Assembly: GCA_965248695.1 (NCBI GenBank)
Contig: CBDFKD010000002.1
Coordinates: 768,001 to 832,000, forward strand
Length of the DNA: 64,000 nucleotides
Source of the DNA: Acidobacteriota bacterium
Lineage (GTDB): Bacteria > Acidobacteriota > UBA890 > WLXD01
Reading direction: 5' to 3'
A program made the translations under genes and the position numbers. This document shows, piece after piece, positions 1 through 17,202 of this stretch. Below the pieces are notes generated by a model, which searched no databases, had not been told where the DNA came from, and was given only the letters and a program-made list of their open reading frames with translations. How positions within the stretch are numbered: the first letter of the stretch is position 1; every line of letters begins with the position of its first letter.

Positions 1-1250
1 CCGCCAGCAGGAACGTGGTGTTGGAAGGGCTGTACGAGTTCGAAATATTCTCCTATCCGCTCGTCGAACCGATCATGGCCGTTTAACTGCAGTTTGGTCG
101 AGCCGATAGTGATCTGACCAGTTACGACGGTGTCCGACGCGTTTGGCTTGACGCGGAACCGCAGCGTCCCCGAGTTGAGCTCACTACCGATGACCACGTC
201 CACGTTGACGCTCGAATCTCTCAACTCGATCCAAGGGGCGGACGCGACAACCGTCAAGTCGGGCGTGCCCGTCATCGCGAGGCCGATCTCACCCACACCA
301 CCGCTGCAAGGGAAGCCGGCGCTCTTGCTCTCAGGGGAAACGATTGTGACGGTGCCGCCACCGCCACCGCCGCCACCGCCATCGTCGTCGTCGGTGATGG
401 TGCCGACTCCCTGCCCATCGCCGATCGTGGGCAGCCCGATGGAGCCAGAACCACCGCTCGGAAAAACGTTGGAGAGGTTCACGGTGAAGGTCTCGTCGGA
501 CTCGGCGGTCGCATCCCCGTTCACAGAAACGTTGAACGTCTTCGTCTCACCGCCCGTGCCGTTGAAGCTCAGCGTGCTCGTCTTCGCGGTGTAGTCGCTG
601 CCCGCCGTGGCGCTGCCGTCGGCGGTCGCGGCCTGGACGGTGAAAGCGTCCGAGGCGGCCGACAGCGTCACCGTGAAGCTGAAGTTCTTGCTGCCGCTGT
701 CGCCCTCAACCGCCGTGACGTCGTTGATCGACACCGTGGCGTTGCCACCCCCACCGCCACCGGCGTCGTCGTCAGGGGTAATGGTGACCGTCGCCGTATC
801 GTCGCCGATCGTCACATCGGCAGCGCCGGCTCCCCCCACGCCGGTGATCTTCACGGTGAAGGTCTCGTTGCCCTCCACCTCCGTGTCGTCATGGATCTCG
901 ATGTTGAAGATTTTGGTTTGCGGCAGTCCCGTACCGGTCAGCGTCGTCGTTCGCCCAGTGTAGTCAGCGCCGTCCGTGGCAGTGTCGCCTGGCCCCGTGA
1001 AAGCGGTGATGGTGAATTCGAACGGGGGGGCGTCGCCGGTGAACGTCACAGGTACGAAGACCTGAGTGTTGCCCTCCTCGATCGAGATGTCGCCGACCGA
1101 CAGAGTGCCAGCGGCCTTGCCGCTCGCGGGCGCACCTGCGGCGGCGATCTGCGGCGCCGAGATCAGCAGGATCACCAGCGCCAGCGCCACGGCGGGACGG
1201 GAGACATCGACGCGCGCACGCTTCTGTAGAGCCAGGGCTAGCCGGGACAT
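1..1250 (-). CDS. Secreted Calx-beta repeat surface protein (partial, runs off left edge)
   Basis: Not in ORF track. Manual translation from ATG 1250: signal-like N-terminus (RPAVALALVILLISAPQIAAA), two Calx-beta-like repeats (ATDGADY...IHDDTEVEGNETFTVKI; ATAGSDY...VNGDATAESDETFTVNL), poly-Gly linkers, BACON-like segment (ASAPWIEL...FRVKPN). No stop found to base 1. Confidence 0.85.
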   Translation of the reverse strand, partial: MSRLALALQKRARVDVSRPAVALALVILLISAPQIAAAGAPASGKAAGTLSVGDISIEEGNTQVFVPVTFTGDAPPFEFTITAFTGPGDTATDGADYTGRTTTLTGTGLPQTKIFNIEIHDDTEVEGNETFTVKITGVGGAGAADVTIGDDTATVTITPDDDAGGGGGGNATVSINDVTAVEGDSGSKNFSFTVTLSAASDAFTVQAATADGSATAGSDYTAKTSTLSFNGTGGETKTFNVSVNGDATAESDETFTVNLSNVFPSGGSGSIGLPTIGDGQGVGTITDDDDGGGGGGGGGTVTIVSPESKSAGFPCSGGVGEIGLAMTGTPDLTVVASAPWIELRDSSVNVDVVIGSELNSGTLRFRVKPNASDTVVTGQITIGSTKLQLNGHDRFDERIGEYFELVQPFQHHVPAG

Positions 1251-4833: not shown

Positions 4834-6771
4834 TTACTCCAAACCGAATGCCAGCAGCACGTTCCCCGGTGAACCGCGCAAAATCGCATAGCCGGAGCCG
4901 ACGTACATCATGCCGTCGACGATCGTCGGGGCCGCGCCTCCGAAGCCGCCACCGAAGCCCCTCACGCCGTTGATCGTGTCGAAATCCCGCCGCGTGGCGA
5001 ACTCCCACACTACGCTGCCGTCCTCGGTCGAGAAGGCGCGCATCACACCGTCGCGCGCCCCGACCAAGACCGCGCCGGGAATGGCGACCGCGGGGGCCCA
5101 GTGACCCGAGTGGCACGTCTGACCCGATTCGGGATCTTCACAGTTGCTCGGCTTCGGCACCTCCGTATACCAGGCACGAGAGCCGTCCTCGGCCCGCAGC
5201 GCCGCCAGGCCGCCCCTGCCGTCTTCGAGCGGGAACGGCTTGAGATAGTACTCGCCGTCGAACGCGCCGCCGAAGCCGGCGCTTTGCGCCGCCAGCTCGT
5301 CGCCCGCTTGCGCCACCCACAAGATCTTGCCCTGGTCATCGGGATCCATGGCGGTGATACGGCCGCTCTCTTGGCCTTGAATGAGGATTCTGCTGCCGTC
5401 CTCCAGCGTGTGCAGCACCGGCGAGCCCGAGGCATCGTCGTTGCGGCCGCTGATGAGGCCTGGACAGTTGATTCGCCGCTCCTCCGGTTGCCGCCCGCAG
5501 CCGCCACCAAATCTCTCTAGAGCCACCAGCTGCGTCCACCACAGGCGTTCGCCGGTATCCATGTCGTACGCCGTGACAGCAGCGCAAGTGCCGTCGTCGA
5601 ACCCGACTCGTTGCTCGAAGAACTCGGTCATGTAGCAGTTGCCAGAAGCCGCGTAGAGAGTGCGGTGATCGATATCGAGCGTCGGTGCGTTCCATACGGA
5701 GGCACCGGCCGGTCCGTACATCTGTGTGCCAGCCGAGTTCTTGCGCAATGGCCGAGGGCGCTCGGACATCGAGTACGTCTTCCACACCGTCTGGCCCGTG
5801 TTCACATCCACCGCAACGATGCTGCCCTGGAACTGACAGCACTCATACGACAGATCCCCGCTGGGGAGCTCCTCCCACGATGCGACCCCGACGTACAGAT
5901 GACCTCCGGGCGCGGGGTCGAGCACCGGTGTGCCGGTGATCTTGGCGGCCGCGTGCTCGTCTGGCCGCGTGCCCCAGATCTCTTCGCCGGTTTCGGCGTT
6001 GACGCCGGTGACATAGCCCCGGTAGTCGCCGAACATGGCGACGTAGCGGACGCCGGGCACATCGGTCACCTCGCTCACGCTGACCGCGGTGCGCACCTGT
6101 CCTCGTGCCTCGTAGGACCAGTGCACACAGCCCGTCTTGGCGTCCAGCGCGTAAACGAATTTGTTGTCGCTGCCCACGAACAGCGCCCCGCCCACGACCG
6201 TCGGTTGCGCCCAGGATGCGGAAGCCGCACCCGGAATCGCGAACGCCCACTTCAACTCGAGCTGCGACACCTGCGCTCCGGTAAGCCCGCCCGCTTCCGC
6301 CGGTTGGAACCGGTGGGACTTGCCAGGATCGGGGGACCAGCCGTTCCATCGCGGCCGGCTGAACGGGTCGTGCAGGGTCAACGGGCTGCTGCAGGGGTTG
6401 CTCATCGCGGCGGCGGTGCGGTCGGGGGCGTCACCGAAGGGCTTGGCAGCTGCCAGCTCGGCCAGGGCGAGCAGGTTCTCCTCGCTCCACCCCTCGACAT
6501 AGACAGCCATCGATCCCGTGGTGATCGACTCGAGCACTCGCTCGGCGCTCATCGCCGCCATGGCTTCCCGACTTGGCGCCCGGTTGTCGGCGGCGGTGTT
6601 GTCGTGGCAGGTGGCGCACCGCCCCTCGAACCCCGACCTCATGCTGGCGGGTGAGTTGCCGACCACCGGTGAGTACTGTCCCGACGCAATCGAGCCGGAG
6701 GCATGCCACGCCAGGCCGCTCGCAGCGAGGAACACGACGACACTCAACGAAACGATGAATCGTCTCAACAT
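4834..6771 (-). CDS. Quinohemoprotein PQQ dehydrogenase, polyvinyl-alcohol-dehydrogenase-like (copy 1)
   Basis: Signal peptide, heme c motif CATCH, PQQ propeller repeats (LELKWAF, VYALDAKTGCVHW), vicinal CC (YECCQFQG), C-terminal GNVLLAF. Confidence 0.9.
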   Translation of the reverse strand: MLRRFIVSLSVVVFLAASGLAWHASGSIASGQYSPVVGNSPASMRSGFEGRCATCHDNTAADNRAPSREAMAAMSAERVLESITTGSMAVYVEGWSEENLLALAELAAAKPFGDAPDRTAAAMSNPCSSPLTLHDPFSRPRWNGWSPDPGKSHRFQPAEAGGLTGAQVSQLELKWAFAIPGAASASWAQPTVVGGALFVGSDNKFVYALDAKTGCVHWSYEARGQVRTAVSVSEVTDVPGVRYVAMFGDYRGYVTGVNAETGEEIWGTRPDEHAAAKITGTPVLDPAPGGHLYVGVASWEELPSGDLSYECCQFQGSIVAVDVNTGQTVWKTYSMSERPRPLRKNSAGTQMYGPAGASVWNAPTLDIDHRTLYAASGNCYMTEFFEQRVGFDDGTCAAVTAYDMDTGERLWWTQLVALERFGGGCGRQPEERRINCPGLISGRNDDASGSPVLHTLEDGSRILIQGQESGRITAMDPDDQGKILWVAQAGDELAAQSAGFGGAFDGEYYLKPFPLEDGRGGLAALRAEDGSRAWYTEVPKPSNCEDPESGQTCHSGHWAPAVAIPGAVLVGARDGVMRAFSTEDGSVVWEFATRRDFDTINGVRGFGGGFGGAAPTIVDGMMYVGSGYAILRGSPGNVLLAFGLE

Positions 6772-7585: not shown

Positions 7586-9526
7586 CTACTCGAGACCGAA
7601 CGCCAGCAACACGTTTCCTGGCGCGCCGCTGAGGATGGCGTACCCGGAGCCGATGTACACCATGCCGTCGACGATCGATGGGGCGGCGCCTCCGAACCCG
7701 CCGCCGAATCCTGCGACTCCGTTGATGGTGTCGAAGTCGCGCCGCGTGTTGAACTCCCACTGAATGCTGCCGTCCTCCGTCGAGAAGGAGCGCATGACGC
7801 CATCGCGCGAGCCGGTGAACACGGCGCCGGGAATGGCGGCGGCTGCCGCCCAGTTTCCGGAATGACACGTCTTGGTCGATTCCGGATCCTCACAGTCGGT
7901 GCGCTGTGGGATTGCCGTATGCCACACGCGTGACCCGTCTAGCCGCAGGGCCGCGATGCTGCCGCTGCCGTCCTCGAAAGGCAGCGGCTTGAAGTAGTAC
8001 TCGCCATCAAACGCGCCCCCGAAGCCGCCGTTGGGCGCCCCCAGCGCGTCGCCTGCCTGGGCTACCCAAAGGATGGCGCCGTCGTTGTCGGGATCGAGGG
8101 CCGTTACGCGTCCGCTCTCTTGCCCCTGGATCAGAATGCGCCGGCCATCGTCGAACGTGTGGAGTATGGGCGATCCGGAGGGATCGTCGTCGCGACCGTC
8201 GACGTAGCCGGGGCAATTGACGCGCTGCTCCTCGGGGCTCATTCCACAGCCGCCACCATGTGGATCGTTGGCGGTTAGCTGCGTCCACCAGAGCCGCTCG
8301 CCGGTGTCCATGTCGAAGGCGAAGACCGCGTCGCAGGCTCCGTCGTCGAATCCGAACTCCTGTTCGAAGAACTCGGTGATGTAGCAGTTGCCGGCCGTCG
8401 CGTAGAGCTTGCGGTTTTCGAGATCGAGCGTCGGGGCATTCCAAACTGCCGCCCCGGCCGGACCCCACAACTGCGTGCCGGCGGCGTTCTTGCGCAGCGG
8501 CCGTGGAGGCTCGGGGAACGTGTAGGTTGCCCAGACCTTCTCGCCGGTGTTGACGTCGACGGCGACGACGCTGCCCTGGAACTTGCAGCATCCATACTCG
8601 ATCGCCATCCCGGGAATCTCCTCCCAGGACGCCACCCCGACATACAGATGGCCACCTGGCGACGGATCGAGCGTCGCCGGTCCGGTCATCTTGGCGGCTG
8701 GATGGTCGTCCGGCCGCATCGTCCACAGCTTCTCGCCGGTCTCGGCGTTGACCGCACTGACGTAGCCCATGTAATCGCCGAACATAGCCGCATAGCGCAC
8801 CCCTGGCACCTCGGTCACCGCACCGATGCTTACCGCGGTGCGTACCTGCCCCGGTGCCTCGAACGACCAGTGCACGCAGCCGGTCTTGGCATCGAGCGCG
8901 TAGACGAAGCTGTTGTCGCTGCCAAGGAACAGTGCGCCGCCGACGATGGCGGGCTGCGCCCAGGCGGCCGACGCGGCGCCAGGGATGGCGAACGCCCACT
9001 TGAGCTCAAGGTCCGAGATCTGCGCGCCATTGAGGCCGGCAGCCTCCTCTGGCTGGAAGCGATAGGAACGCGTCGGGTCCGGAGACCAGCCGTTCCACCC
9101 TGGCTGGGCGAAGGGGTCGTCGAGCCGTAGCGGGCTGGCGCACGGGTTGCTCATGGCCGCAGCGGCCCGGTCGGCGACGCCGCCGAACGGCGTGCCGCTC
9201 ACGAGCTCTGCCATCGCCCGCAGTCGCTCCTCGTCGAAACCCGGTACAAACTCGGCCATCGGACCGGTCGTGAGCGCGCTGAGAACGCGCTCCGGGTCCA
9301 GTTGCCTGAGCGCTTCGCGGCTCGGCGCGCGACTATCCGGATCGGTGCTCTCGTGGCAGGTAGCGCAGGCAGCCTCGAAGAACACGACCATACCGGCGGT
9401 GGAGGCGTCGGGAAGCGGCCGTTGCCGCTGCGCCCATGCGGTAGAAGGCGAGGCGTACAGGCCCAGCGCCAAGAGTGCGCCGGAGGTGACTACGGCACCG
9501 GTCGAGAGCAGAGCTCGCCTTAGCAT
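7586..9526 (-). CDS. Quinohemoprotein PQQ dehydrogenase, PVA-DH-like (copy 2)
   Basis: CATCH, YGCCKFQG, PQQ repeats; collinear with 4834-6771. Confidence 0.9.
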   Translation of the reverse strand: MLRRALLSTGAVVTSGALLALGLYASPSTAWAQRQRPLPDASTAGMVVFFEAACATCHESTDPDSRAPSREALRQLDPERVLSALTTGPMAEFVPGFDEERLRAMAELVSGTPFGGVADRAAAAMSNPCASPLRLDDPFAQPGWNGWSPDPTRSYRFQPEEAAGLNGAQISDLELKWAFAIPGAASAAWAQPAIVGGALFLGSDNSFVYALDAKTGCVHWSFEAPGQVRTAVSIGAVTEVPGVRYAAMFGDYMGYVSAVNAETGEKLWTMRPDDHPAAKMTGPATLDPSPGGHLYVGVASWEEIPGMAIEYGCCKFQGSVVAVDVNTGEKVWATYTFPEPPRPLRKNAAGTQLWGPAGAAVWNAPTLDLENRKLYATAGNCYITEFFEQEFGFDDGACDAVFAFDMDTGERLWWTQLTANDPHGGGCGMSPEEQRVNCPGYVDGRDDDPSGSPILHTFDDGRRILIQGQESGRVTALDPDNDGAILWVAQAGDALGAPNGGFGGAFDGEYYFKPLPFEDGSGSIAALRLDGSRVWHTAIPQRTDCEDPESTKTCHSGNWAAAAAIPGAVFTGSRDGVMRSFSTEDGSIQWEFNTRRDFDTINGVAGFGGGFGGAAPSIVDGMVYIGSGYAILSGAPGNVLLAFGLE

Positions 9527-9539
9527 CGTGGATATCCCC

Positions 9540-10754
9540 TTAGATTAGCGCGGCCAGGACGCGCAGAAGTCCCGCTACGTCGTTCTGATTGTTGAAGAGC
9601 GCGATCGCAGCGCGCAGTAACTTGCCTTCCTCTTGGAAGGTGACCGACACATTGTCCGCCCTCAGGGCGCTGAGTAGCGTCTCAGGATCCAGGCCGTGGT
9701 AGAAGCTCACGATCGGTGACGCGTTATCCGGCGGCGTGAACAGCTCCAGGCCGAGGTCGGCGATTCCGGCGCGCAGCTCGCGCGCCAGCGCGACGGTATG
9801 CTGCTCGACGCGATCGAGCCCCACTTCCTCAAGCACACCAAGTGCGGCGTCCATGGCGGACATGGCGCCATACGACACGTTGGCGTACTCGAACTTTTCG
9901 GCCCTCGTCTCGAGGGCGAAGCGATGATCAGGGAGGCTCTCGGCAACTTGGCCGTGGCCGTAGCGGTCAGGCGACATCCAGTCGAGGTGTTCACGACGAA
10001 CGTACAGCGGTGCGCAGCCGAAGTCGGCGAACAGCCACTTGTAGCCGTTGCCGCAGGCGAAGTCGACGCCTTCAGCGTGCAGCTCTGTCGGGAAGGTGCC
10101 GAATGCCTGGATGGCATCGGCGTAGAGATATGCCCCGTTGGCATGGGCGAGCTCGGCGAGCGATGGGAGGTGGTGGCGAAAGCCGTTGCGGTTGGAGACC
10201 CAGGCAACGCTCAGCAGGCGGGTTCGCGCATCGACGCGTGCCCCGAAGTCCTCGATGCGTGAGCGTCCGGCGTGCGACGGCACGATGCGTAGCTCGACGC
10301 CGGCACGCTTTTCGAGCTCGCGGTAGAGCACGAAGCTGGTAGTGAAATGGAGCTCGTCGAGCACGACGTTGTCGCCGGCTCTCCAATCCATGGCGTTGAC
10401 CACCACGTTCTCGCCATCGCTGGTCGAATACAGAAACGCGATCTCGTCGGCGTCGGCACCGAACAGCGCCGCGAAGCTGACCCGAGCGCGCTCCTTCGCC
10501 TCGCGGCGGCTCCCGGGGTTGCGGTAGAGCATCTTCTCGTCGGCGTAGGCCACCAGGGTGTCGCGCACGGTTCGCGACAGCGGGCCGAGCGAGGCGGTGT
10601 TGAGATAGGTGAGCTCGTTGGTGACCGGAAACTCGGAGCGCATGCCGAGCGGATCCTCGTCGGTCGAGGAGGCCAGTGCGCGCGGTCTTGGTAGTGTGGC
10701 GAGCCCGGTGGCCGCTGTCGTCTTCATGAAGCTACGCCGATTCAACCTGCTCAC
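9540..10754 (-). CDS. Tat-exported class V PLP aminotransferase-fold enzyme
   Basis: Tat motif NRRSFMK; YLNTASLGP, DAIQAFG, GNGYKWL (PLP Lys). Confidence 0.9.
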   Translation of the reverse strand: MSRLNRRSFMKTTAATGLATLPRPRALASSTDEDPLGMRSEFPVTNELTYLNTASLGPLSRTVRDTLVAYADEKMLYRNPGSRREAKERARVSFAALFGADADEIAFLYSTSDGENVVVNAMDWRAGDNVVLDELHFTTSFVLYRELEKRAGVELRIVPSHAGRSRIEDFGARVDARTRLLSVAWVSNRNGFRHHLPSLAELAHANGAYLYADAIQAFGTFPTELHAEGVDFACGNGYKWLFADFGCAPLYVRREHLDWMSPDRYGHGQVAESLPDHRFALETRAEKFEYANVSYGAMSAMDAALGVLEEVGLDRVEQHTVALARELRAGIADLGLELFTPPDNASPIVSFYHGLDPETLLSALRADNVSVTFQEEGKLLRAAIALFNNQNDVAGLLRVLAALI

Positions 10755-10776
10755 GAGGACCCTCCGGTCCGCTGCT

Positions 10777-12315
10777 TCAAGGTTGGAAGGAGACCACGGT
10801 CGAAACGGCCACCTCGGCCTCGGTTTCGATCTTGAGGGTCACGCTGTTGTTGACCCAGTCAATGGCGATCGTCCCGCACTTGGACAGGGGCTTGTTGATG
10901 ATGTGCCGATCCTGAGTGGTCAGCGCCGAGAGGTTATCGCTGATGCTGCCGACCTGCCCTGTCGGGATCGCTGCCCCGGCTGGAGCGCACTCGCCCCAGG
11001 CCTCAGGGATGCCGTTGCCGTTGGCGTCGAGCTGCGTGTAGCACCACGGGGCGCCATGCTCTGCCGTCGTGCAGCCGCCATGGGTCGTGCCTGCATGGCC
11101 GAACGGCAGCTGGCACCGGGCATCGTAGGTTCCGTTCGCCCTCGTATCGGCCCAGATCGGGAGGCGGTTGGGGTTGGGTATGTCCTCCGGGTAGTCCTGG
11201 TCGAATCCGGAGCCCGTGACCTCGTAGAAAGTCACCCCGCTCTCGCCGGTCGCCGATGGCGGCATCGTCTTCTGCAGCAGCTCGCCCCAGTGCTGGTCGC
11301 CTGAGACGAAGACTACCAGCTTGGTGTTGCCTTCTTGCACGGCCTTGTGCGTCAGTCGCAACAGCCGCTCCCGTTGCAGAGGCATCTCTGCCCAGGACTC
11401 GTAAAGGGTGCCGGAATCGTAGGTCTCACCGAGATGGTCGATCGCGGCATTGAACTCCGCTCCGTCGCCGTAGGCGCAATAGTCAGTCAGCGGTCGGTCC
11501 CGGTTCAGCGGCGGCAGCACTTGCGTGCCGGAGGCGATCACGGTGATCTCTGAAGTGACCCTCAGTTGCTGCTCCAGCCACGACCACTGCTCATCTCCCA
11601 GCATGGTGGACGCGGCCCCCTCGCAGGCGCCGTACTCGATGAACGTCGGCGAGCGATGGTAGCGGGCGTCGAGCATGATGACGTTGACGCGATCCTTCAG
11701 CGCCGCCGACCCGAACAAGGTGGCGTTGTAGACGCCTGCCCGGCCGCCGTCTCGGACATCGCGGTAGCGAATGTCGTCCGGCGGTATGTCGAAGTGGCGC
11801 AGAAACTCCAGCTGGCTCTCGACGCGCTTGGAATAGTCGTTGCCGGCGTTGTTCTCACCGAAATCGTGATCGTCCCAGGTGGCCATCACCGGTATTTGCG
11901 CCTGAAGAAACGGCTGGTAGGTATCGCCGTTCTTCTTGACATCGTAGGTGGCGCGCATCTCCGTCATGTCGGCCGTGTCGGCGTAGACGTTGTCCCCGAG
12001 CCAGAGGAACAGGTCGGGACCCTGCGCCGCCAATCGTTCCATTGCCGCCCGCGTCGTCCCGTTCTCGTCGTGCCAGCAGGAACCGAAGGAGATGGTCTCC
12101 AGGTGAGCCGCGGCGTCGGGCTGAGTGTGGGTCGACACTTGCGCGCCCGCGGACTGCGGACCCGCGGCGAGCGAGAGCGCAACGACCACCGGCAACAGCC
12201 TCAACTCGCGCCGTGCGCGATCTTGCCCCACGAACAGACGTCTGGAGCCATCGGGCAAGTGCTTGATCCTTCCGGTTGGCGCCGTCCGGGCGCGGGATGC
12301 CGGCCCGATATGCAA
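10777..12315 (-). CDS. phoD: PhoD-family alkaline phosphatase with fibronectin type II-like insert
   Basis: ISFGSC, WLGDNVYAD, TWDDHDFG, MLDARYHR, MLGDEQWSWL, SGDQHWGE. True start may be GTG 12231 or TTG 12204. Confidence 0.85.
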   Translation of the reverse strand: MHIGPASRARTAPTGRIKHLPDGSRRLFVGQDRARRELRLLPVVVALSLAAGPQSAGAQVSTHTQPDAAAHLETISFGSCWHDENGTTRAAMERLAAQGPDLFLWLGDNVYADTADMTEMRATYDVKKNGDTYQPFLQAQIPVMATWDDHDFGENNAGNDYSKRVESQLEFLRHFDIPPDDIRYRDVRDGGRAGVYNATLFGSAALKDRVNVIMLDARYHRSPTFIEYGACEGAASTMLGDEQWSWLEQQLRVTSEITVIASGTQVLPPLNRDRPLTDYCAYGDGAEFNAAIDHLGETYDSGTLYESWAEMPLQRERLLRLTHKAVQEGNTKLVVFVSGDQHWGELLQKTMPPSATGESGVTFYEVTGSGFDQDYPEDIPNPNRLPIWADTRANGTYDARCQLPFGHAGTTHGGCTTAEHGAPWCYTQLDANGNGIPEAWGECAPAGAAIPTGQVGSISDNLSALTTQDRHIINKPLSKCGTIAIDWVNNSVTLKIETEAEVAVSTVVSFQP

Positions 12316-12641
12316 CCACGGATCAAGAGCCGTCTCCAGGGAGACGCGATGGGCGCGTCTGGCATCGATCTCCCGACGATCGTGCCGAGCCGCGTGTTCG
12401 ATCCGCTCCTGACGGTCGTCTACACTGCGACGCGGAATAGCTGACGTCGGACGGACGGCCGGTGCCGGGGCGCTTCAAGCGCGCTGGCGTGTCCGTATCG
12501 ACACCCGCCTCGTGTCCGGCGGTCCGGCTGCGAAACACCCGTCGTTCAGTCCGAGCCGCGGGCTCACCACCGTATCGACAGCGAGTGCGCGTCGGGCCGG
12601 CATGTAGCTGGCGAGCAACGTCGACTCGGCAGGAAGATCAG

Positions 12642-13841
12642 ATGACTCGACACACTCCTTTTCATTCGCGCACGTGCGAGCTGAATGAAGGGCAACGCTG
12701 GGAGGACTGGGAGGGATTCCTCGCCGCGACGATGTACGGTCTCGATCCCGTGGTGGAATACAACACCATCCGTCTGGGGTGCGGGCTCTTCGATGTCTCG
12801 CCGCTCCACAAGTACGAGGTCCGCGGTCCCGATGCCCAGGCACTCCTGCAGCGTATGGTCGTGCGCGACCTCGCACCGTCACGGCCGGGACGGGCGTTCT
12901 ACACGGTCTGGTGTGACGACGATGGAAAGGTCGTCGACGACGGAGCCGTCTTCCACATCACCGAAGAGCACTTTCGGCTGACCTCGACGCTTCCAAGCCT
13001 CGAGTGGTTGATCGACAACTCCGTCGACTTCGACGTTGCGATCGAAGACGTTTCCGAGGAGGTCGTGGGCATCGCGATCCAGGGGCCGACCTCCCGCGAC
13101 CTGCTGCAAGAGCTTACGAGCGCCCAACTGAGGGCCTTGAAGTATTGGCACTGCATCGCGGCCGACGTCTGCGGAAGACCGACGTTGATCTCACGCACCG
13201 GCTATACCGGGGACCTCGGCTTCGAGATCTTCCTGCGAGCTGAAGACGCCGAAGTGATCTGGGACGCGTCGATGTCCCTGGCGCCGGACTATCAGATGCG
13301 CCCGTGTGGCCTGGTTGCCCTCGACATGGCGCGGATCGAGGCCGGACTGCCGCAGATCGATGTCGAGTTCATCTCCGCCAAGCAGACCCTCTTCGAGGTA
13401 CGGAAGATCTCTCCCCTCGAGTTGGGGCTGGGATGGATGTGCAAGCTCGACGGCGACGTTTTCGTTGGCCGCGAAGCGCTGCGAAACGAGAAGGCTAAGG
13501 GCACCTCTCGGTGGAATACCGTCGGCATCGAGCTCGACGTCACATACATCGAAAAGTACTTCAGCGAGTTCGGCATGCCCCTCCACCTGCCGGACGTACC
13601 GTGGAGCGAAGCGGTGCCGATCTACTCGGACGAAGCGCAAGAAGACCTCATCGGCCGCGGCACGAGCGGCATGTGGTCGCCCCTGCTCAAGAAGTACATC
13701 GCGATCACACGCATTCCACCCGGCTACGCGAAGCTCGGAACCTGCTTCTTCATCGAGGAGGTGATCGAGGCCAAGGCGTTCTCGATTCCGGCGAAGGTGG
13801 TCAACATGCCCTTCTTCGATCCGCCGCGGAAGAAGGCATGA
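12642..13841 (+). CDS. GcvT-family aminomethyltransferase-like protein
   Basis: TPFH, LFDVSPL, GPDA, GKVVDDG, IQGPTSR, SRTGYTGDLGFEI, ARIEAG, PFFDP. Confidence 0.92.
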   Translation: MTRHTPFHSRTCELNEGQRWEDWEGFLAATMYGLDPVVEYNTIRLGCGLFDVSPLHKYEVRGPDAQALLQRMVVRDLAPSRPGRAFYTVWCDDDGKVVDDGAVFHITEEHFRLTSTLPSLEWLIDNSVDFDVAIEDVSEEVVGIAIQGPTSRDLLQELTSAQLRALKYWHCIAADVCGRPTLISRTGYTGDLGFEIFLRAEDAEVIWDASMSLAPDYQMRPCGLVALDMARIEAGLPQIDVEFISAKQTLFEVRKISPLELGLGWMCKLDGDVFVGREALRNEKAKGTSRWNTVGIELDVTYIEKYFSEFGMPLHLPDVPWSEAVPIYSDEAQEDLIGRGTSGMWSPLLKKYIAITRIPPGYAKLGTCFFIEEVIEAKAFSIPAKVVNMPFFDPPRKKA

Positions 13842-13915
13842 ACGAGATCCCAGTGGGCGAGTGAGCATGCAAGAAGAACGCAACCGAGCTCTCAAATTTG
13901 CTTCAGGGGCAGACC

Positions 13916-15502
13916 ATGGCTGAGCGATACGACGCGATCATCGTCGGTGGCGGCCACAACGGATTGACCTGCGCCGCCTATCTCGCCAAGGCAGGGCAAA
14001 AGGTGCTGGTGCTCGAACGACGGCACCTCGTGGGCGGCGCCGCCGTGACCGAAGAAATCTATCCGGGCTTCAAATATTCGGTCTGCTCCTACGTCGTCAG
14101 CCTGTTGCGCCCCGAGGTGACGCGCGAGCTCGACCTCGGCAGACACGGCCTCCAGATCTGTCCCCAGGAGTTCGTCTATCTCCCAATGGAGAACGGCGAT
14201 CATCTGGTCACCCACGGTGATCCCCACAAGACCCGGGCGGAGTTTCGTCGCTTCTCGAGGAAGGACGCCGACCGTGCCGAGCATTTCGAGGACTTGATGT
14301 ACCGCATGGCGTTCGCTGTGAAGCCCATCCTCGGATACAAGCCGCCGAATATCTCGGCCCCGAGTCTGCGGGACCTCAGCACCCTGAGAGAGTTTGGCGG
14401 CCACCTGAGAGGGCTCGGCAAGGATACGTTTCATCAGCTCACCAAGATCATGACGATGAGCGCCGACGACTTCGTCGGCGAGTTCTTCGAAACGCCGATC
14501 ATTCGCGCCATGCACAGCCTGAGCGGTGTCATCGGCACCATGCTCGGCCCCAAATCACCCGGCACCGCATACGTGCTCCTACATCACTACATGGGCGACC
14601 TCGACGGTGCGTTCTCGGCGTGGGGAGCGCAAAAGGGTGGCACGGGCATGGTGAGCGAGGCGATTGCGAGTGCCGCACGCGAGCACGGCGCGGAGATTCG
14701 CGTCAACGCGCCCGTGTCGCAGATCATCATCAAGAACGGCACCGCTGTGGGTGTGGCGCTAGAGAACGGCGACGAGCTCTACGCGAAGACGATCGCGACG
14801 GGCTGCGACCCGCACGTCTCCTTTCGCAAGCTCGTCGACGAGAAGGAGCTGCCGGAAGATTTCGTGCGCACCATCGACAACTTCAAATTCCGTGGATCGT
14901 CGGGCAAGGTCAACATCGCCCTCGATGGAATCCCCAAGTTCACCGGGATGGAGGATCTCCGACACCTGAGTGGGGCGATCGATATCTGTCCCAGTACGGA
15001 CTACGTCGAGCAGGCCTATGACGACGCCAAATACGGTGGCTTCTCCAAGCGCCCCGCGATGGAGATCTGCATCCCCTCGATCAACGACCCGACGATGGCG
15101 CCGCCCGGGAAGCACATGATGTCGATTTTCGTGCAGTACTGCGCGTACGATCTCGAGCACTACGGCAACCGCGATCAACAGCGTGAAGCCTTCGGCAACG
15201 CGGTCATCGACACCGTCCAGGAATTCTGCCCGAACATCAAGGATCTCATCCTGCACAAGCAGGTCCTGACGCCCTGGGATCTGGAACAGATGATCGGGCT
15301 GACCGAGGGCAACATCTTCCACGGAGAGCTGACCCTCGATCAGCTTTTCTTCTCGCGGCCCGCCGCCGGATTCGCGGACTACAAGACTCCCATCCGTAAC
15401 TACTGGCAGTGCGGTTCGGGCGCCCACCCCGGTGGCGGCATCATGGCGATGCCCGGCCGGTTGGCCGCCAAGGAGATTCTCGGCGGACGGCTCGTCGTGT
15501 AG
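13916..15502 (+). CDS. Phytoene-desaturase-like FAD oxidoreductase (PYROXD2-type), copy 1
   Basis: YDAIIVGGGHNGL, ERRHLVGGAAVTEE, GNIFHGEL, CGSGAHPGGGI. Confidence 0.92.
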   Translation: MAERYDAIIVGGGHNGLTCAAYLAKAGQKVLVLERRHLVGGAAVTEEIYPGFKYSVCSYVVSLLRPEVTRELDLGRHGLQICPQEFVYLPMENGDHLVTHGDPHKTRAEFRRFSRKDADRAEHFEDLMYRMAFAVKPILGYKPPNISAPSLRDLSTLREFGGHLRGLGKDTFHQLTKIMTMSADDFVGEFFETPIIRAMHSLSGVIGTMLGPKSPGTAYVLLHHYMGDLDGAFSAWGAQKGGTGMVSEAIASAAREHGAEIRVNAPVSQIIIKNGTAVGVALENGDELYAKTIATGCDPHVSFRKLVDEKELPEDFVRTIDNFKFRGSSGKVNIALDGIPKFTGMEDLRHLSGAIDICPSTDYVEQAYDDAKYGGFSKRPAMEICIPSINDPTMAPPGKHMMSIFVQYCAYDLEHYGNRDQQREAFGNAVIDTVQEFCPNIKDLILHKQVLTPWDLEQMIGLTEGNIFHGELTLDQLFFSRPAAGFADYKTPIRNYWQCGSGAHPGGGIMAMPGRLAAKEILGGRLVV

Positions 15503-15531
15503 CAGGCCACACTTTCACCACGGCCTGCTAG
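15500..15531. repeat. Intergenic inverted repeat / dispersed 24-bp repeat, copy 1
   Basis: TAGCAGGCC-N13-GGCCTGCTA 9-bp stem; 15508-15531 matches 53637-53660 at 22/24. Confidence 0.65.
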
Positions 15532-15606
15532 GCTACGCCCGCCTTCGCGCGGGACCTCGTCGATTCGACCTCACTCAACCCTGTACTCGACAGAGGAAAG
15601 AACGTC

Positions 15607-17202
15607 TTGGGCAACTACGACGCGATCGTCATCGGAGCGGGGCACAACGGGCTGGTCACTGCCGCCTACCTGGCCAGGGCAGGACGCAAGGTCTTGGTGC
15701 TCGAGCGGCGCGGCATTGTGGGCGGCGCTGCGGTCACCGAGGAGATCTTTTCCGGCTTCAAGGTCTCGAGCGTGGCAGATGGCTGCGGCTATCTCTCGCC
15801 CGCCGTACGTCGCGATCTCGAGCTCGATTCTCGCGTCGAGACGATCGACTCGGAAGTCGTCGCCTTCTGCCCCCAGCCCGACGCTTCCCAGCTGACCATC
15901 CACCGCGATAGCGCCAAGACCATGCAGCAGATCGCGGCTTTCTCGCGGGCCGACGCCGATGCCTATCCGAAATTCATCGAGCTCATGCAGGCGCTGGCGG
16001 GGGTTGTGGGCGCGCTTGGACATATGACGCCGCTCGACCTCCCCGATATCTCCTTCGGTGACCTGCGCGGCGCGGTGGGATTGCTCGGCCCGGGACGAAA
16101 GCTCGGTCGCAAGCGGATCTCCGAGCTGCTGCGAATCCTGCCGATGCCCGCCGCCGACATTCTGAACGAGTATTTCGATTCGAAGGTCGTAAAGGGCGCG
16201 ATCGGCGCGAACAGCTCGCTGGGCATCTCGTTGGGACCCCAGGAATCGGGTACTGCCTACACCATGCTCTACAACTGGGCGCTCAGCGGGAACGGATTAT
16301 TTCGCTCAGCCGGCGTTGTCAAGGGCGGCATGGGGGCGCTCTGCGATGCGATCGCAGACGCGGCCCGGGGCTTCGGGGCCGACATCCGAACCGACGCGCC
16401 GGTTTCGCGGATCACTGTGGAGGATGGGCGCGCAACGGGCGTCGAGCTCGCGAACGGCGAAGCGTTGACGGCATCGACGATTGTCTCGAACGCCGACCCG
16501 CGCACCACCTTCACCCGACTCCTCGCTCCCCGTGGGCTCGAGACCAAGCTGCTCAAGCACATCGACAACATCAAGTACGGGGGCACGGGCCTGCGCATCC
16601 ATCTTGCGCTGAGCGGGTTGCCGGAGTTTGCGGCTCTTGCGGGCAGCTCGGCGGCGGACTCTCTGGCGCGGCTCGGTGCCCCGATCCAGATCGCACCATC
16701 GCTCGAGTACATCGAGCGGGCCTACGATTGCAGCAAATTCGGTCGCTTCTCCGAGTTCCCCTTCCTCGACATCTTGATCCCCTCCGTACTGGACCCGAGC
16801 GCCGCTCCCGACGGACAACACCTGATGTCGATCACCGCGAAATACGGCCCCAACGAACTTCGCGACGGTGACTGGGAGACGCAGAAGGAAGTCTTCGCGG
16901 ACGTCGTGGTGAATACGCTGGCGGTGTACGTGCCGGGCATTCGCGAGCTCGTTCGTCAGCGACGCGTTCTCTCCATGGACGACCTCGAGAGCACCTACGG
17001 TTTGCCTGAGGGCAACCCCAATCACGGCGAGATGATCCTCAACCAGTTCTTCCACATGCGGCCGATTCCCGGCCACGCGCAATATCGAACGCCGATCGGC
17101 GGGATGTATCTCTGCGGCGCAAGTTGCCATCCGGGTGGCGGCGTCACCGGCGTACCGGGCCACAACGCGGCGCGCGAGATATTGAAGGACGCGAACAGGT
17201 AG
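15607..17202 (+). CDS. Phytoene-desaturase-like FAD oxidoreductase, copy 2
   Basis: YDAIVIGAGHNGL, GGAAVTEE, GNPNHGEM, CGASCHPGGGVTG. Confidence 0.92.
   Translation: MGNYDAIVIGAGHNGLVTAAYLARAGRKVLVLERRGIVGGAAVTEEIFSGFKVSSVADGCGYLSPAVRRDLELDSRVETIDSEVVAFCPQPDASQLTIHRDSAKTMQQIAAFSRADADAYPKFIELMQALAGVVGALGHMTPLDLPDISFGDLRGAVGLLGPGRKLGRKRISELLRILPMPAADILNEYFDSKVVKGAIGANSSLGISLGPQESGTAYTMLYNWALSGNGLFRSAGVVKGGMGALCDAIADAARGFGADIRTDAPVSRITVEDGRATGVELANGEALTASTIVSNADPRTTFTRLLAPRGLETKLLKHIDNIKYGGTGLRIHLALSGLPEFAALAGSSAADSLARLGAPIQIAPSLEYIERAYDCSKFGRFSEFPFLDILIPSVLDPSAAPDGQHLMSITAKYGPNELRDGDWETQKEVFADVVVNTLAVYVPGIRELVRQRRVLSMDDLESTYGLPEGNPNHGEMILNQFFHMRPIPGHAQYRTPIGGMYLCGASCHPGGGVTGVPGHNAAREILKDANR

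Follow-up and report, generated by a model that had tools for sequence, protein, structure and literature searches.

A fibronectin type II module set inside a PhoD-family phosphatase shared by an acidobacterial genus, Gammaproteobacteria and a diatom

Fibronectin type II (FN2) modules are built of two small antiparallel sheets with 1-3 and 2-4 disulfides and are regarded as related in fold to the kringle; those of PDC-109 bind phosphorylcholine. PhoD enzymes are among the main microbial routes to phosphate bound in organic matter, their preferences among substrates have been mapped only poorly, and the enzyme of Bacillus subtilis carries a twin-arginine export signal. In the accessible part of the structural report on that enzyme, an Fe3+/2Ca2+ site is described with a Tyr on the iron and with mutagenesis of C180, D207, D265, D266, N271, N272 and D436, the metals being held by loops that lie on a single face of its β-sandwich (Rodriguez et al. 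2014, PMC4223295). The Streptomyces PhoD-type phospholipases D (SchPLD/SaPLD) belong to the same superfamily, have an Fe-Ca-Ca centre and prefer phosphatidylcholine; according to the part of the report available, their cleft is open and suits a bulky phosphodiester with a choline head group, an example of the PhoD scaffold specialising by additions around the cleft (PMC13435022). The fn2 domain was listed as deuterostome-specific in the accessible part of a 2007 domain survey (PMC2394772). The window analysed here is a 64,000-nucleotide stretch of an Acidobacteriota genome (assembly GCA_965248695.1, contig CBDFKD010000002.1, positions 768,001 to 832,000). An earlier note on its sequence had proposed that a minus-strand gene encodes a PhoD phosphatase with an FN2-like module, taken as a eukaryote-like domain that targets the enzyme to host matrix or choline-phospholipids. 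The homology of this module to FN2, the PhoD fold, the intact metal ligands, the topology of the insertion, the distribution of the subfamily, its restriction to one acidobacterial genus and purifying selection on it are together held with high confidence. What is unusual is the combination of PhoD and FN2 and its range, with FN2 fixed inside an enzyme of marine bacteria and a diatom.

The 43-residue segment quoted in the earlier note is the exact translation of the reverse complement at its position (Table 1) and corresponds to residues 401-443 of a 512-codon open reading frame (ORF). Residues below are numbered as in P0003, the product on record, which is the ORF number minus 42. Pfam fn2 (PF00040) matched the ORF at 26.4 bits (E 7.1e-6, model positions 1-42 of 42) and the 43-mer alone at 32.8 bits (E 7.1e-8), both above the curated cutoff of 22.2 bits, and the four-cysteine FN2 pattern pointed out in the earlier note was thereby borne out. 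A six-frame scan of the whole 5.89-Mb genome returned one fn2 site, this module (30.7 bits), and the identical scan of 14 control genomes returned none. Based on the above-cutoff match, the single genomic site and the empty controls, the pattern is real and beyond chance.

Comparison with solved structures pointed the same way. Searched with phmmer against all PDB chains, the FN2 segment matched MMP-9 (7.6e-6), MMP-2 (3.4e-4), PDC-109 (5.6e-4) and DEC-205 (~4e-3). Over its FN2 columns, a profile of 58 PhoD-FN2 family members (A1) matched the solved modules of MMP-9 (6.7e-17), MMP-2 (1.3e-16), PDC-109 (2.4e-10) and fibronectin (9.5e-10), followed by weaker matches to SEL1L, the cation-independent mannose-6-phosphate receptor and factor XII. 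A profile of the module alone from 12 bacterial copies (A3) retrieved 3137 clusters at E<=0.001 from 1.84 billion representatives; the best 150 of these 3137 comprised 147 proteins with 2-18 FN2 repeats and three PhoDs. As the ranking was by summed score, which places multi-repeat FN2 proteins on top, this search supports homology and is no census of PhoD-FN2. A word-indexed search with the FN2 region alone found itself and two close relatives (3 matches from 5 candidates), which is uninformative, and a language-model atlas query with residues 350-410 gave no usable match.

The four Cys, the PF motif and the Trp of the WC and WGxC motifs are all present in the window and are kept in at least 90% of A1. 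Across the clades tabulated, the four Cys, W382, W398 and G399 were invariant (50/50 sequences), and P362 and F363 nearly so. The family consensus CxFPFxYxGxxYxxC includes three aromatic positions (F3, Y7 and Y12) that are Leu, His and His in the window copy, and these replacements explain its low fn2 score, since the orthologues of Pseudoalteromonas and Tahibacter reached 43-49 bits. The loss of these canonical pocket aromatics (Phe 3, Tyr 7, Tyr 12) concerns ligand binding, not homology. In the full-length AlphaFold model, which had a mean predicted local distance difference test score (pLDDT) of 94.6 and a predicted template modelling score (pTM) of 0.93, with pLDDT 95-98 across the FN2 and the insert, four short FN2 strands were modelled at 363-365, 368-370, 382-384 and 398-401. 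A four-strand pattern like this one is seen in the crystal structure of the factor XII FnII domain, as far as the accessible part of that report goes (PMC12216678). A Cys/Trp-rich loop that mimics the FN2 pattern by chance would fit the modest window score of 26.4 bits and the low-confidence model of the isolated segment, which matched no FN2 structure (see below). Set against an end-to-end match above the curated cutoff, orthologous modules at 43-49 bits, a family profile at 6.7e-17 against solved FN2s and 0 sites in 14 control genomes, this explanation retains next to no probability.

The identification of the host protein as a PhoD phosphatase also held. Pfam PhoD (PF09423) matched the ORF at 65.6 bits (cutoff 27; E 5.5e-18) over residues 79-369 and profile positions 5-289 of 343. 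The top Foldseek match of the model was B. subtilis PhoD (2yeq_A, E 3.8e-15), on which VIA-align superposed 325 residues (model range 10-470) at Z 27.6 and a root-mean-square deviation of 3.4 Å, with purple acid phosphatases next at Z ~24. FN2-less PhoDs of ~350 amino acids (aa), mostly from Planctomycetota and Verrucomicrobiota, can be aligned from residue ~26 as far as the N339-P-N-R342 loop and then again from the last three strands onwards (comparison A2), where the NYGxIxIDW strands are shared and G439, D444 and W445 are invariant. Because the FN2-less proteins skip from the NPNR loop to the last strands, residues ~343-436 are an insertion, made up of a lead-in, the FN2 at 359-401 and a conserved 35-residue loop, and the module does lie just ahead of the last PhoD strands, as had been proposed. 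In every module-bearing member scanned, fn2 starts ~20 residues past the end of the PhoD match. The strand order of the model is 291-296, the GD298xH300 ligand loop, 302-309, 319-326 (ending in invariant T325 and S327), the insert and 437-444. Since PhoD metals sit on loops of one sandwich face, this order suggests that the insertion both departs from and rejoins the core on the metal-binding face. In the model the FN2 forms a rigid portion of the enzyme and is not a tethered adhesin domain (pLDDT 95-98, pTM 0.93). Two extra Cys, C189 and C238, accompany a further insertion at ~226-263 and are conserved in at least 90% of A1, consistent with a putative C189-C238 disulfide.

By profile alignment to the 2YEQ chain (E 4.1e-16), whose numbering is offset by 56 from that of PMC4223295, residues C38, D66, Y69, D106, D107, N113, N114 and D298 correspond to C180, D207, the Tyr, D265, D266, N271, N272 and D436. 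Seven of the eight positions are invariant or near-invariant in A2 and in the profile A4, and the eighth, N114, is present in the window. As all eight are present, the PhoD-FN2 protein should be catalytically competent. It shares with B. subtilis PhoD the metallophosphatase sandwich and these ligand positions, and both would be extracytoplasmic phosphate-scavenging enzymes; identity, however, is only ~20% over aligned residues, and phmmer of the protein against PDB chains gave no match at E<=0.01. The two also differ in that the B. subtilis enzyme has an occluding C-terminal helix, whereas the window protein has the FN2 insert and the second insertion on the modelled metal-site face, and in the long N-terminal domain, which the window protein lacks, given that its Pfam PhoD match begins at ORF residue 79.

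The two domains were found together in 72 of 120 homologue clusters among the matches listed (hand count). Named bacterial members came from Pseudoalteromonas (several species), Microbulbifer, Gallaecimonas, Thalassomonas, Marinagarivorans and Tahibacter, with 52-58% identity, and the genome loci of the family added Bermanella and one unclassified gammaproteobacterial metagenome-assembled genome. The database name of the bacterial relatives is 'alkaline phosphatase D family protein', an automatic label on uncharacterised proteins. Eukaryotic members were two MMETSP transcripts and one cluster with a Ditylum brightwellii 'Fibronectin type-II domain-containing protein' (39% identity). Of 400 scored and evenly sampled gammaproteobacterial species genomes, only the centre genome had fn2 above the cutoff; in the family holding Pseudoalteromonas it was present in 8 of 201 genomes, always as one site in a frame of 575-611 aa. 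FN2 is thus conserved outside animals as well, which offers a testable case of how the FN2/kringle-type fold arose. No paper describing the PhoD-FN2 architecture was found in the searchable literature (subscription journals and bioRxiv supplements being outside reach), where text matches to the combination concerned only FN3 or irisin, no report of bacterial FN2 was found among the matches listed of a literature search on fn2, prokaryotes and kringle, PF00040 and PF09423 occurred together in no paper among the matches listed, and a 2026 preprint on alkaline-phosphatase evolution did not mention fibronectin. One prokaryote paper gave PF00040 mistakenly for WD repeats.

The window protein has its subfamily and insertion site in common with the gammaproteobacterial and Tahibacter members, which differ in being ~100 residues longer and in retaining Tyr at module positions 7 and 12. 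The N-terminal extension of ~100 residues in those members (L007-L013, L009; P0017, P0043, P0041, P0202) carries two further FN2-type Cys/Trp modules; one of them was recognised by Pfam in the Bermanella frame (22.6 bits), and a local profile recognised them in P0041 and P0202. At its insertion site the 527-aa metagenomic protein P0083 bears two FN2 modules in tandem (residues 254-306 and 314-364). The eukaryote-type clade is set apart by a further pair of Cys in the post-FN2 loop and by added domains, among them ricin, kringle and GH114_assoc. One of its members, the 856-aa metagenomic protein P0074, has an N-terminal Kringle (E 7.4e-20) upstream of the PhoD core, such that Kringle and FN2 both occur on one enzyme scaffold.

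Compared with the animal FN2 modules of MMP-2, MMP-9, fibronectin, PDC-109 and factor XII, the window module shares the full-length fn2 match, the four Cys, the PF motif, the two Trp, the WG-x-C end and the four modelled strands. It differs in being an internal insertion in an enzyme core where the animal modules are free-standing repeats, in an inter-Trp loop three residues longer than in the MMPs, in the Leu, His and His at consensus positions F3, Y7 and Y12, and in being found in bacteria and a diatom, beyond the animal distribution stated in the accessible part of PMC2394772. A different explanation is that FN2 targets the phosphatase to animal matrix (collagen or gelatin), with an animal-associated lifestyle or an animal-derived domain. 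The nearest solved relatives, the FN2 of MMP-2, MMP-9 and fibronectin, and the deuterostome-specific listing of 2007 would agree with it. We nevertheless regard it as very unlikely: the architecture is common to marine and aquatic Gammaproteobacteria and a diatom, the window gene nests among bacterial sequences, the module is internal to the catalytic fold and neither terminal nor tethered, fn2 occurs once in the genome and the canonical aromatic positions are gone from the window copy. The named members, being marine or aquatic, gave no sign of the animal-associated lifestyle put forward in the earlier note, and targeting to host matrix found no support in a module that is a rigid internal part and that in this genus has His and Ala replacing Tyr and Arg.

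The genome itself is acidobacterial, the nearest named relatives of its ribosomal protein L2 being Acidobacteria/Acidobacteriota (77% and 75% identity). Within the class, fn2 was present in 5 of 26 species genomes, all of the window's genus (5/5 there). The other 11 genera of the class, with 21 genomes, had none; eight of these 21 genomes were 90% complete or better, with contamination of 5% or less. Among 401 sampled genomes of the phylum the same five were positive and the other 396 were not. A whole-protein query returned full-length orthologues (73-87% identity) in the window's genus only, and in other genera only PhoD paralogues with at most 37% identity over the N-terminal half. The nearest named relatives of the gene are Gammaproteobacteria (52-58%), and among congeners it is located at two different loci. 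In a tree of 49 rows ('quick' IQ-TREE search, Shimodaira-Hasegawa-like approximate likelihood ratio support only), the FN2-bearing clade and the group of the window with three close relatives were each supported at 100*, the window group lay among bacterial, mostly gammaproteobacterial, groups, and a separate clade of 22 rows (100*) held the two named eukaryotic sequences. The confinement of fn2 and of the orthologues to one acidobacterial genus indicates that an ancestor of this genus probably acquired the whole PhoD-FN2 gene by an old horizontal transfer, with Gammaproteobacteria as the most likely donor, and the window genome probably offers here one clear case of cross-phylum gene acquisition. 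The suggestion of horizontal transfer in the earlier note therefore stands in part: transfer is likely, but what moved was a complete bacterial PhoD-FN2 gene and not an animal domain, since the window gene groups with bacterial members and not with animal ones.

Pairwise ratios of nonsynonymous to synonymous substitution (dN/dS) among four of the five congeners were 0.10-0.26 for the 43 codons of the FN2, 0.12-0.30 over the entire insert and 0.16-0.18 in the remainder of the protein; the fifth was omitted, its frame being truncated by an in-frame TGA. These low values indicate that the insert is maintained under purifying selection.

Taken as a whole, the explanation that we favour, with a probability of roughly 0.55, is an exported PhoD subfamily with an FN2 lobe, acquired by transfer. 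The gene would encode an exported PhoD-type (Fe3+/2 Ca2+) phosphoesterase of a distinct subfamily, with the FN2 and its ~35-residue loop set into the connection from the third-last to the second-last strand pair of the catalytic β-sandwich and accompanied by the second insertion at ~226-263. Both insertions appear to begin and end at strand ends bearing metal-binding loops, and they would probably form a disulfide-braced lobe at the active-site mouth, comparable to the metallophosphatase cap domains discussed in the accessible part of PMC4223295. The conserved two-Trp pocket of the lobe would hold the organic part of the phosphoester, or a surface or polymer bearing that phosphoester, and the enzyme would act outside the cytoplasm, freeing phosphate from organic phosphorus in dissolved or particulate form. 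The ancestor of the acidobacterial genus would have taken up the gene whole, most likely from Gammaproteobacteria. Within this explanation the ligand-binding lobe is the more tentative part, at somewhat less than an even chance; the position over the active site, the binding of a ligand, the disulfides, the export route and the donor are inferred. The subfamily is a candidate PhoD with a specialised substrate or particle attachment in heterotrophic marine bacteria and diatoms.

The factor XII FnII domain has, in the accessible part of its report, a solvent-exposed pocket of two Trp with flanking Arg and a His-rich surface with metal involvement (PMC12216678). In the PhoD subfamily the insert could alternatively be purely structural, a disulfide-knotted brace of an extracellular enzyme with no ligand role and with the pocket as a relic. 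Such a brace would suit a module that is rigidly packed in the model and most conserved in its Cys, Gly, Pro and Trp core, whose pocket-flanking positions differ between clades (Y365 to H and R376 to A in the window's genus) and on which selection is equal to that on the rest of the protein, not stronger. The invariance of both Trp that form the pocket in factor XII (50/50), however, and the repeated extra FN2 copies in relatives (tandem in P0083; N-terminal in P0041, P0202 and Bermanella) are more easily explained by a binding role, and we consider a pure brace unlikely, if still deserving of real weight.

Several observations count against the favoured explanation of an exported PhoD with a ligand-binding FN2 lobe. 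Strand order, and no measured distance, is the basis for placing the lobe on the active-site face. The NCBIfam equivalog model NF058638 (AlkPhosPhoDBac) gave 18.3 bits against a cutoff of 1000, a score so far under the cutoff that the gene is no equivalog of the characterised PhoD and the substrate range of B. subtilis PhoD is not transferable, and there is no conserved neighbourhood that would indicate a substrate, the gammaproteobacterial neighbours being variable. FN2 homology is strongly supported by sequence and profile evidence, but no superposition on a solved FN2 was obtained. The FN2 segment folded alone (61 aa, 12-sequence A3) reached pLDDT 55.3, too poor to count either way and uninformative because only 12 sequences were used; with this poor model Foldseek returned nothing at E<=0.001, and the highest VIA-align Z among 48,161 chains was 2.4, no FN2 being among the chains listed. 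With regard to the transfer, the sister grouping with Tahibacter and P0041 was supported at 86, unstarred and inside a polytomy, and the gene has a G+C content of 0.64-0.65 compared to 0.61-0.67 nearby; with no anomaly relative to its surroundings, it shows no sign of recent transfer. One congener orthologue (G017:C178:1827-3206, locus L004) contains one in-frame TGA, for which a pseudogene, an assembly error or recoding is possible.

The pocket itself weighs on the same side. Position 365 (module position 7) is His in 4/4 of the window's group, common to all five congeners, and Tyr in 21 of the 24 sequences from Gammaproteobacteria and 17 of the 19 from the eukaryote clade. Position 376, six before the first Trp, is Ala in 4/4 of the window's group and Arg in 15 of 24 gammaproteobacterial sequences. 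The window copy alone has His at 370 (module position 12) and Cys438 in place of a near-universal Tyr438, giving K437-C438 where most members have N-Y. With positions 365, 376, 370 and 438 replaced, the pocket looks remodelled or degraded, and ligand binding may be altered or lost in the window's genus. The His and Ala changes may reflect a changed ligand, an involvement of metal as on factor XII FnII, or a weakening.

A more specific version of the binding idea gives the FN2 pocket a quaternary-amine head group (phosphocholine) as its ligand and would make the enzyme a choline-phospholipid or glycerophosphocholine diesterase resembling the PhoD-type phospholipases. The FN2 modules of PDC-109 are among the nearest solved relatives, and the A4 profile matched chain 9uya, annotated 'Alkaline phosphatase, secreted', at 4.1e-12, a remote match to a chain that may not be SchPLD or SaPLD. 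Module position 7, a Tyr that we take to be a phosphate contact in PDC-109, is His throughout the window's genus. A GcvT-like aminomethyltransferase and two amine oxidases lie near the window gene; these amine-catabolism genes do not accompany PhoD-FN2 in the closest congener or at the gammaproteobacterial loci inspected, which makes the linkage no more than local. The PhoD superfamily does include a phosphatidylcholine-preferring phospholipase D, but SchPLD and SaPLD have no FN2 and their modelled choline cavity is formed by core residues, at least in the accessible part of the report (PMC13435022). On balance a phosphocholine diesterase seems improbable. The binding of choline-phospholipids raised in the earlier note is thus retained as a speculative idea about substrate recognition, which gains a little plausibility from the fact that a PhoD-type phospholipase D exists.

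A bolder and rather unlikely proposal is that FN2 was not an animal invention. The PhoD-embedded module of marine bacteria and protists would then represent an old non-metazoan lineage and the two-Trp pocket a head-group or leaving-group site in a phosphoesterase, and the acidobacterial genus would have captured the enzyme and remodelled the pocket (Tyr to His, Arg to Ala), possibly for a metal-assisted or different ligand. If true, this would imply a new class of substrate in the marine cycling of organic phosphorus, such as choline-type phosphodiesters or a phosphoester in polymeric or particulate form.

Table 1. Features of the PhoD-FN2 gene and its surroundings, in window coordinates
Feature	Position	Strand	Details
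Longest ORF of the PhoD-FN2 gene	10777..12315	-	512 codons, TTG start at 12315
Predicted export signal	12142..12189	-	MVVALSLAAGPQSAGA, then QV; judged by eye
PhoD metallophosphatase core, N-terminal and middle part	11209..12081	-	ORF residues 79-369; Pfam PhoD
First clade-specific insertion	11401..11514	-	P0003 ~226-263; near-invariant C238; missing from FN2-less PhoDs (A2)
Conserved loop into FN2	11116..11211	-	P0003 327-358; N339-P-N341-R342 motif, present also in FN2-less relatives
FN2 module	10987..11115	-	P0003 359-401; four Cys, PF motif, two Trp; fn2 profile and model strands
Post-FN2 loop, second half of insertion	10882..10986	-	P0003 402-436; APxGAxIPTG...TxDRHxIN
Last three β-strands of the PhoD sandwich	10780..10881	-	P0003 437-470; common to FN2-less PhoDs
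Class-V aminotransferase	9540-10754	-	PF00266, E 5.4e-37; twin-arginine-like N-terminus (MSRLNRRSFMKTTAATGLATL...); 22 nucleotides downstream of the PhoD-FN2 gene
PQQ-type β-propeller protein, first paralogue	7586-9526	-	PF13360/PF01011; N-terminal CxxCH haem-c motif (CATCH)
PQQ-type β-propeller protein, second paralogue	4834-6771	-	PF13360/PF01011
Calx-beta protein	3-1250	-	ORF open at window start; Calx-beta E 1.5e-21
GcvT-like aminomethyltransferase, then two flavin amine oxidases	12462-17202	+	Divergent from the PhoD gene

The true start of the gene is uncertain among GTG 12189, GTG 12231 and TTG 12315. The product on record has 470 aa and starts at GTG 12189, with GAGG 8 nucleotides upstream; a start at GTG 12231 would add an Arg-rich n-region. 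From the called start, the N-terminus is a short hydrophobic stretch that ends in AGA-Q and has no RR, and the longer reading frames include RRELRLL; unlike B. subtilis PhoD, the window protein has no clear twin-arginine signal. Inspected by eye, two or three congeners showed a lipobox-like LAAC or LGAC at the N-terminus, and the gammaproteobacterial relatives showed Sec-type signal peptides. An extracytoplasmic location of the PhoD-FN2 enzyme, and with it a route of export, is suggested by these N-termini. A scan of 10500-12700 for promoters and terminators found none.

Downstream of the PhoD-FN2 gene, the N-terminus of the class-V aminotransferase suggests an exported pyridoxal-phosphate enzyme; in the closest congener this gene is missing from that position. 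A phospho-amine pathway assembled from the neighbours (the aminotransferase, two PQQ-type dehydrogenases, the GcvT-like protein and two amine oxidases) was considered and rejected as evidence of function. The block of GcvT and amine oxidase genes is a lineage-specific insertion, since it is absent between PhoD and a MacB/FtsX gene in the closest congener (L088), whose PhoD surroundings lack the aminotransferase, GcvT and the amine oxidases; in two other congeners the gene is at another locus. One gammaproteobacterial copy adjoins a PhoA alkaline phosphatase, which fits phosphate scavenging. The C-terminal end of the Calx-beta protein gave a short, sub-threshold match to the major capsid protein of nucleocytoplasmic large DNA viruses (33.3 bits against 34.8) and is probably a jelly-roll-like segment. 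Two further, distant PhoD paralogues are encoded elsewhere in the genome (G000:C2:837195-837734 and G000:C2:1612495-1612998), in frames of 464 and 478 aa with 32-37% identity over the N-terminal half, and the first of them lies ~5 kb past the window end.

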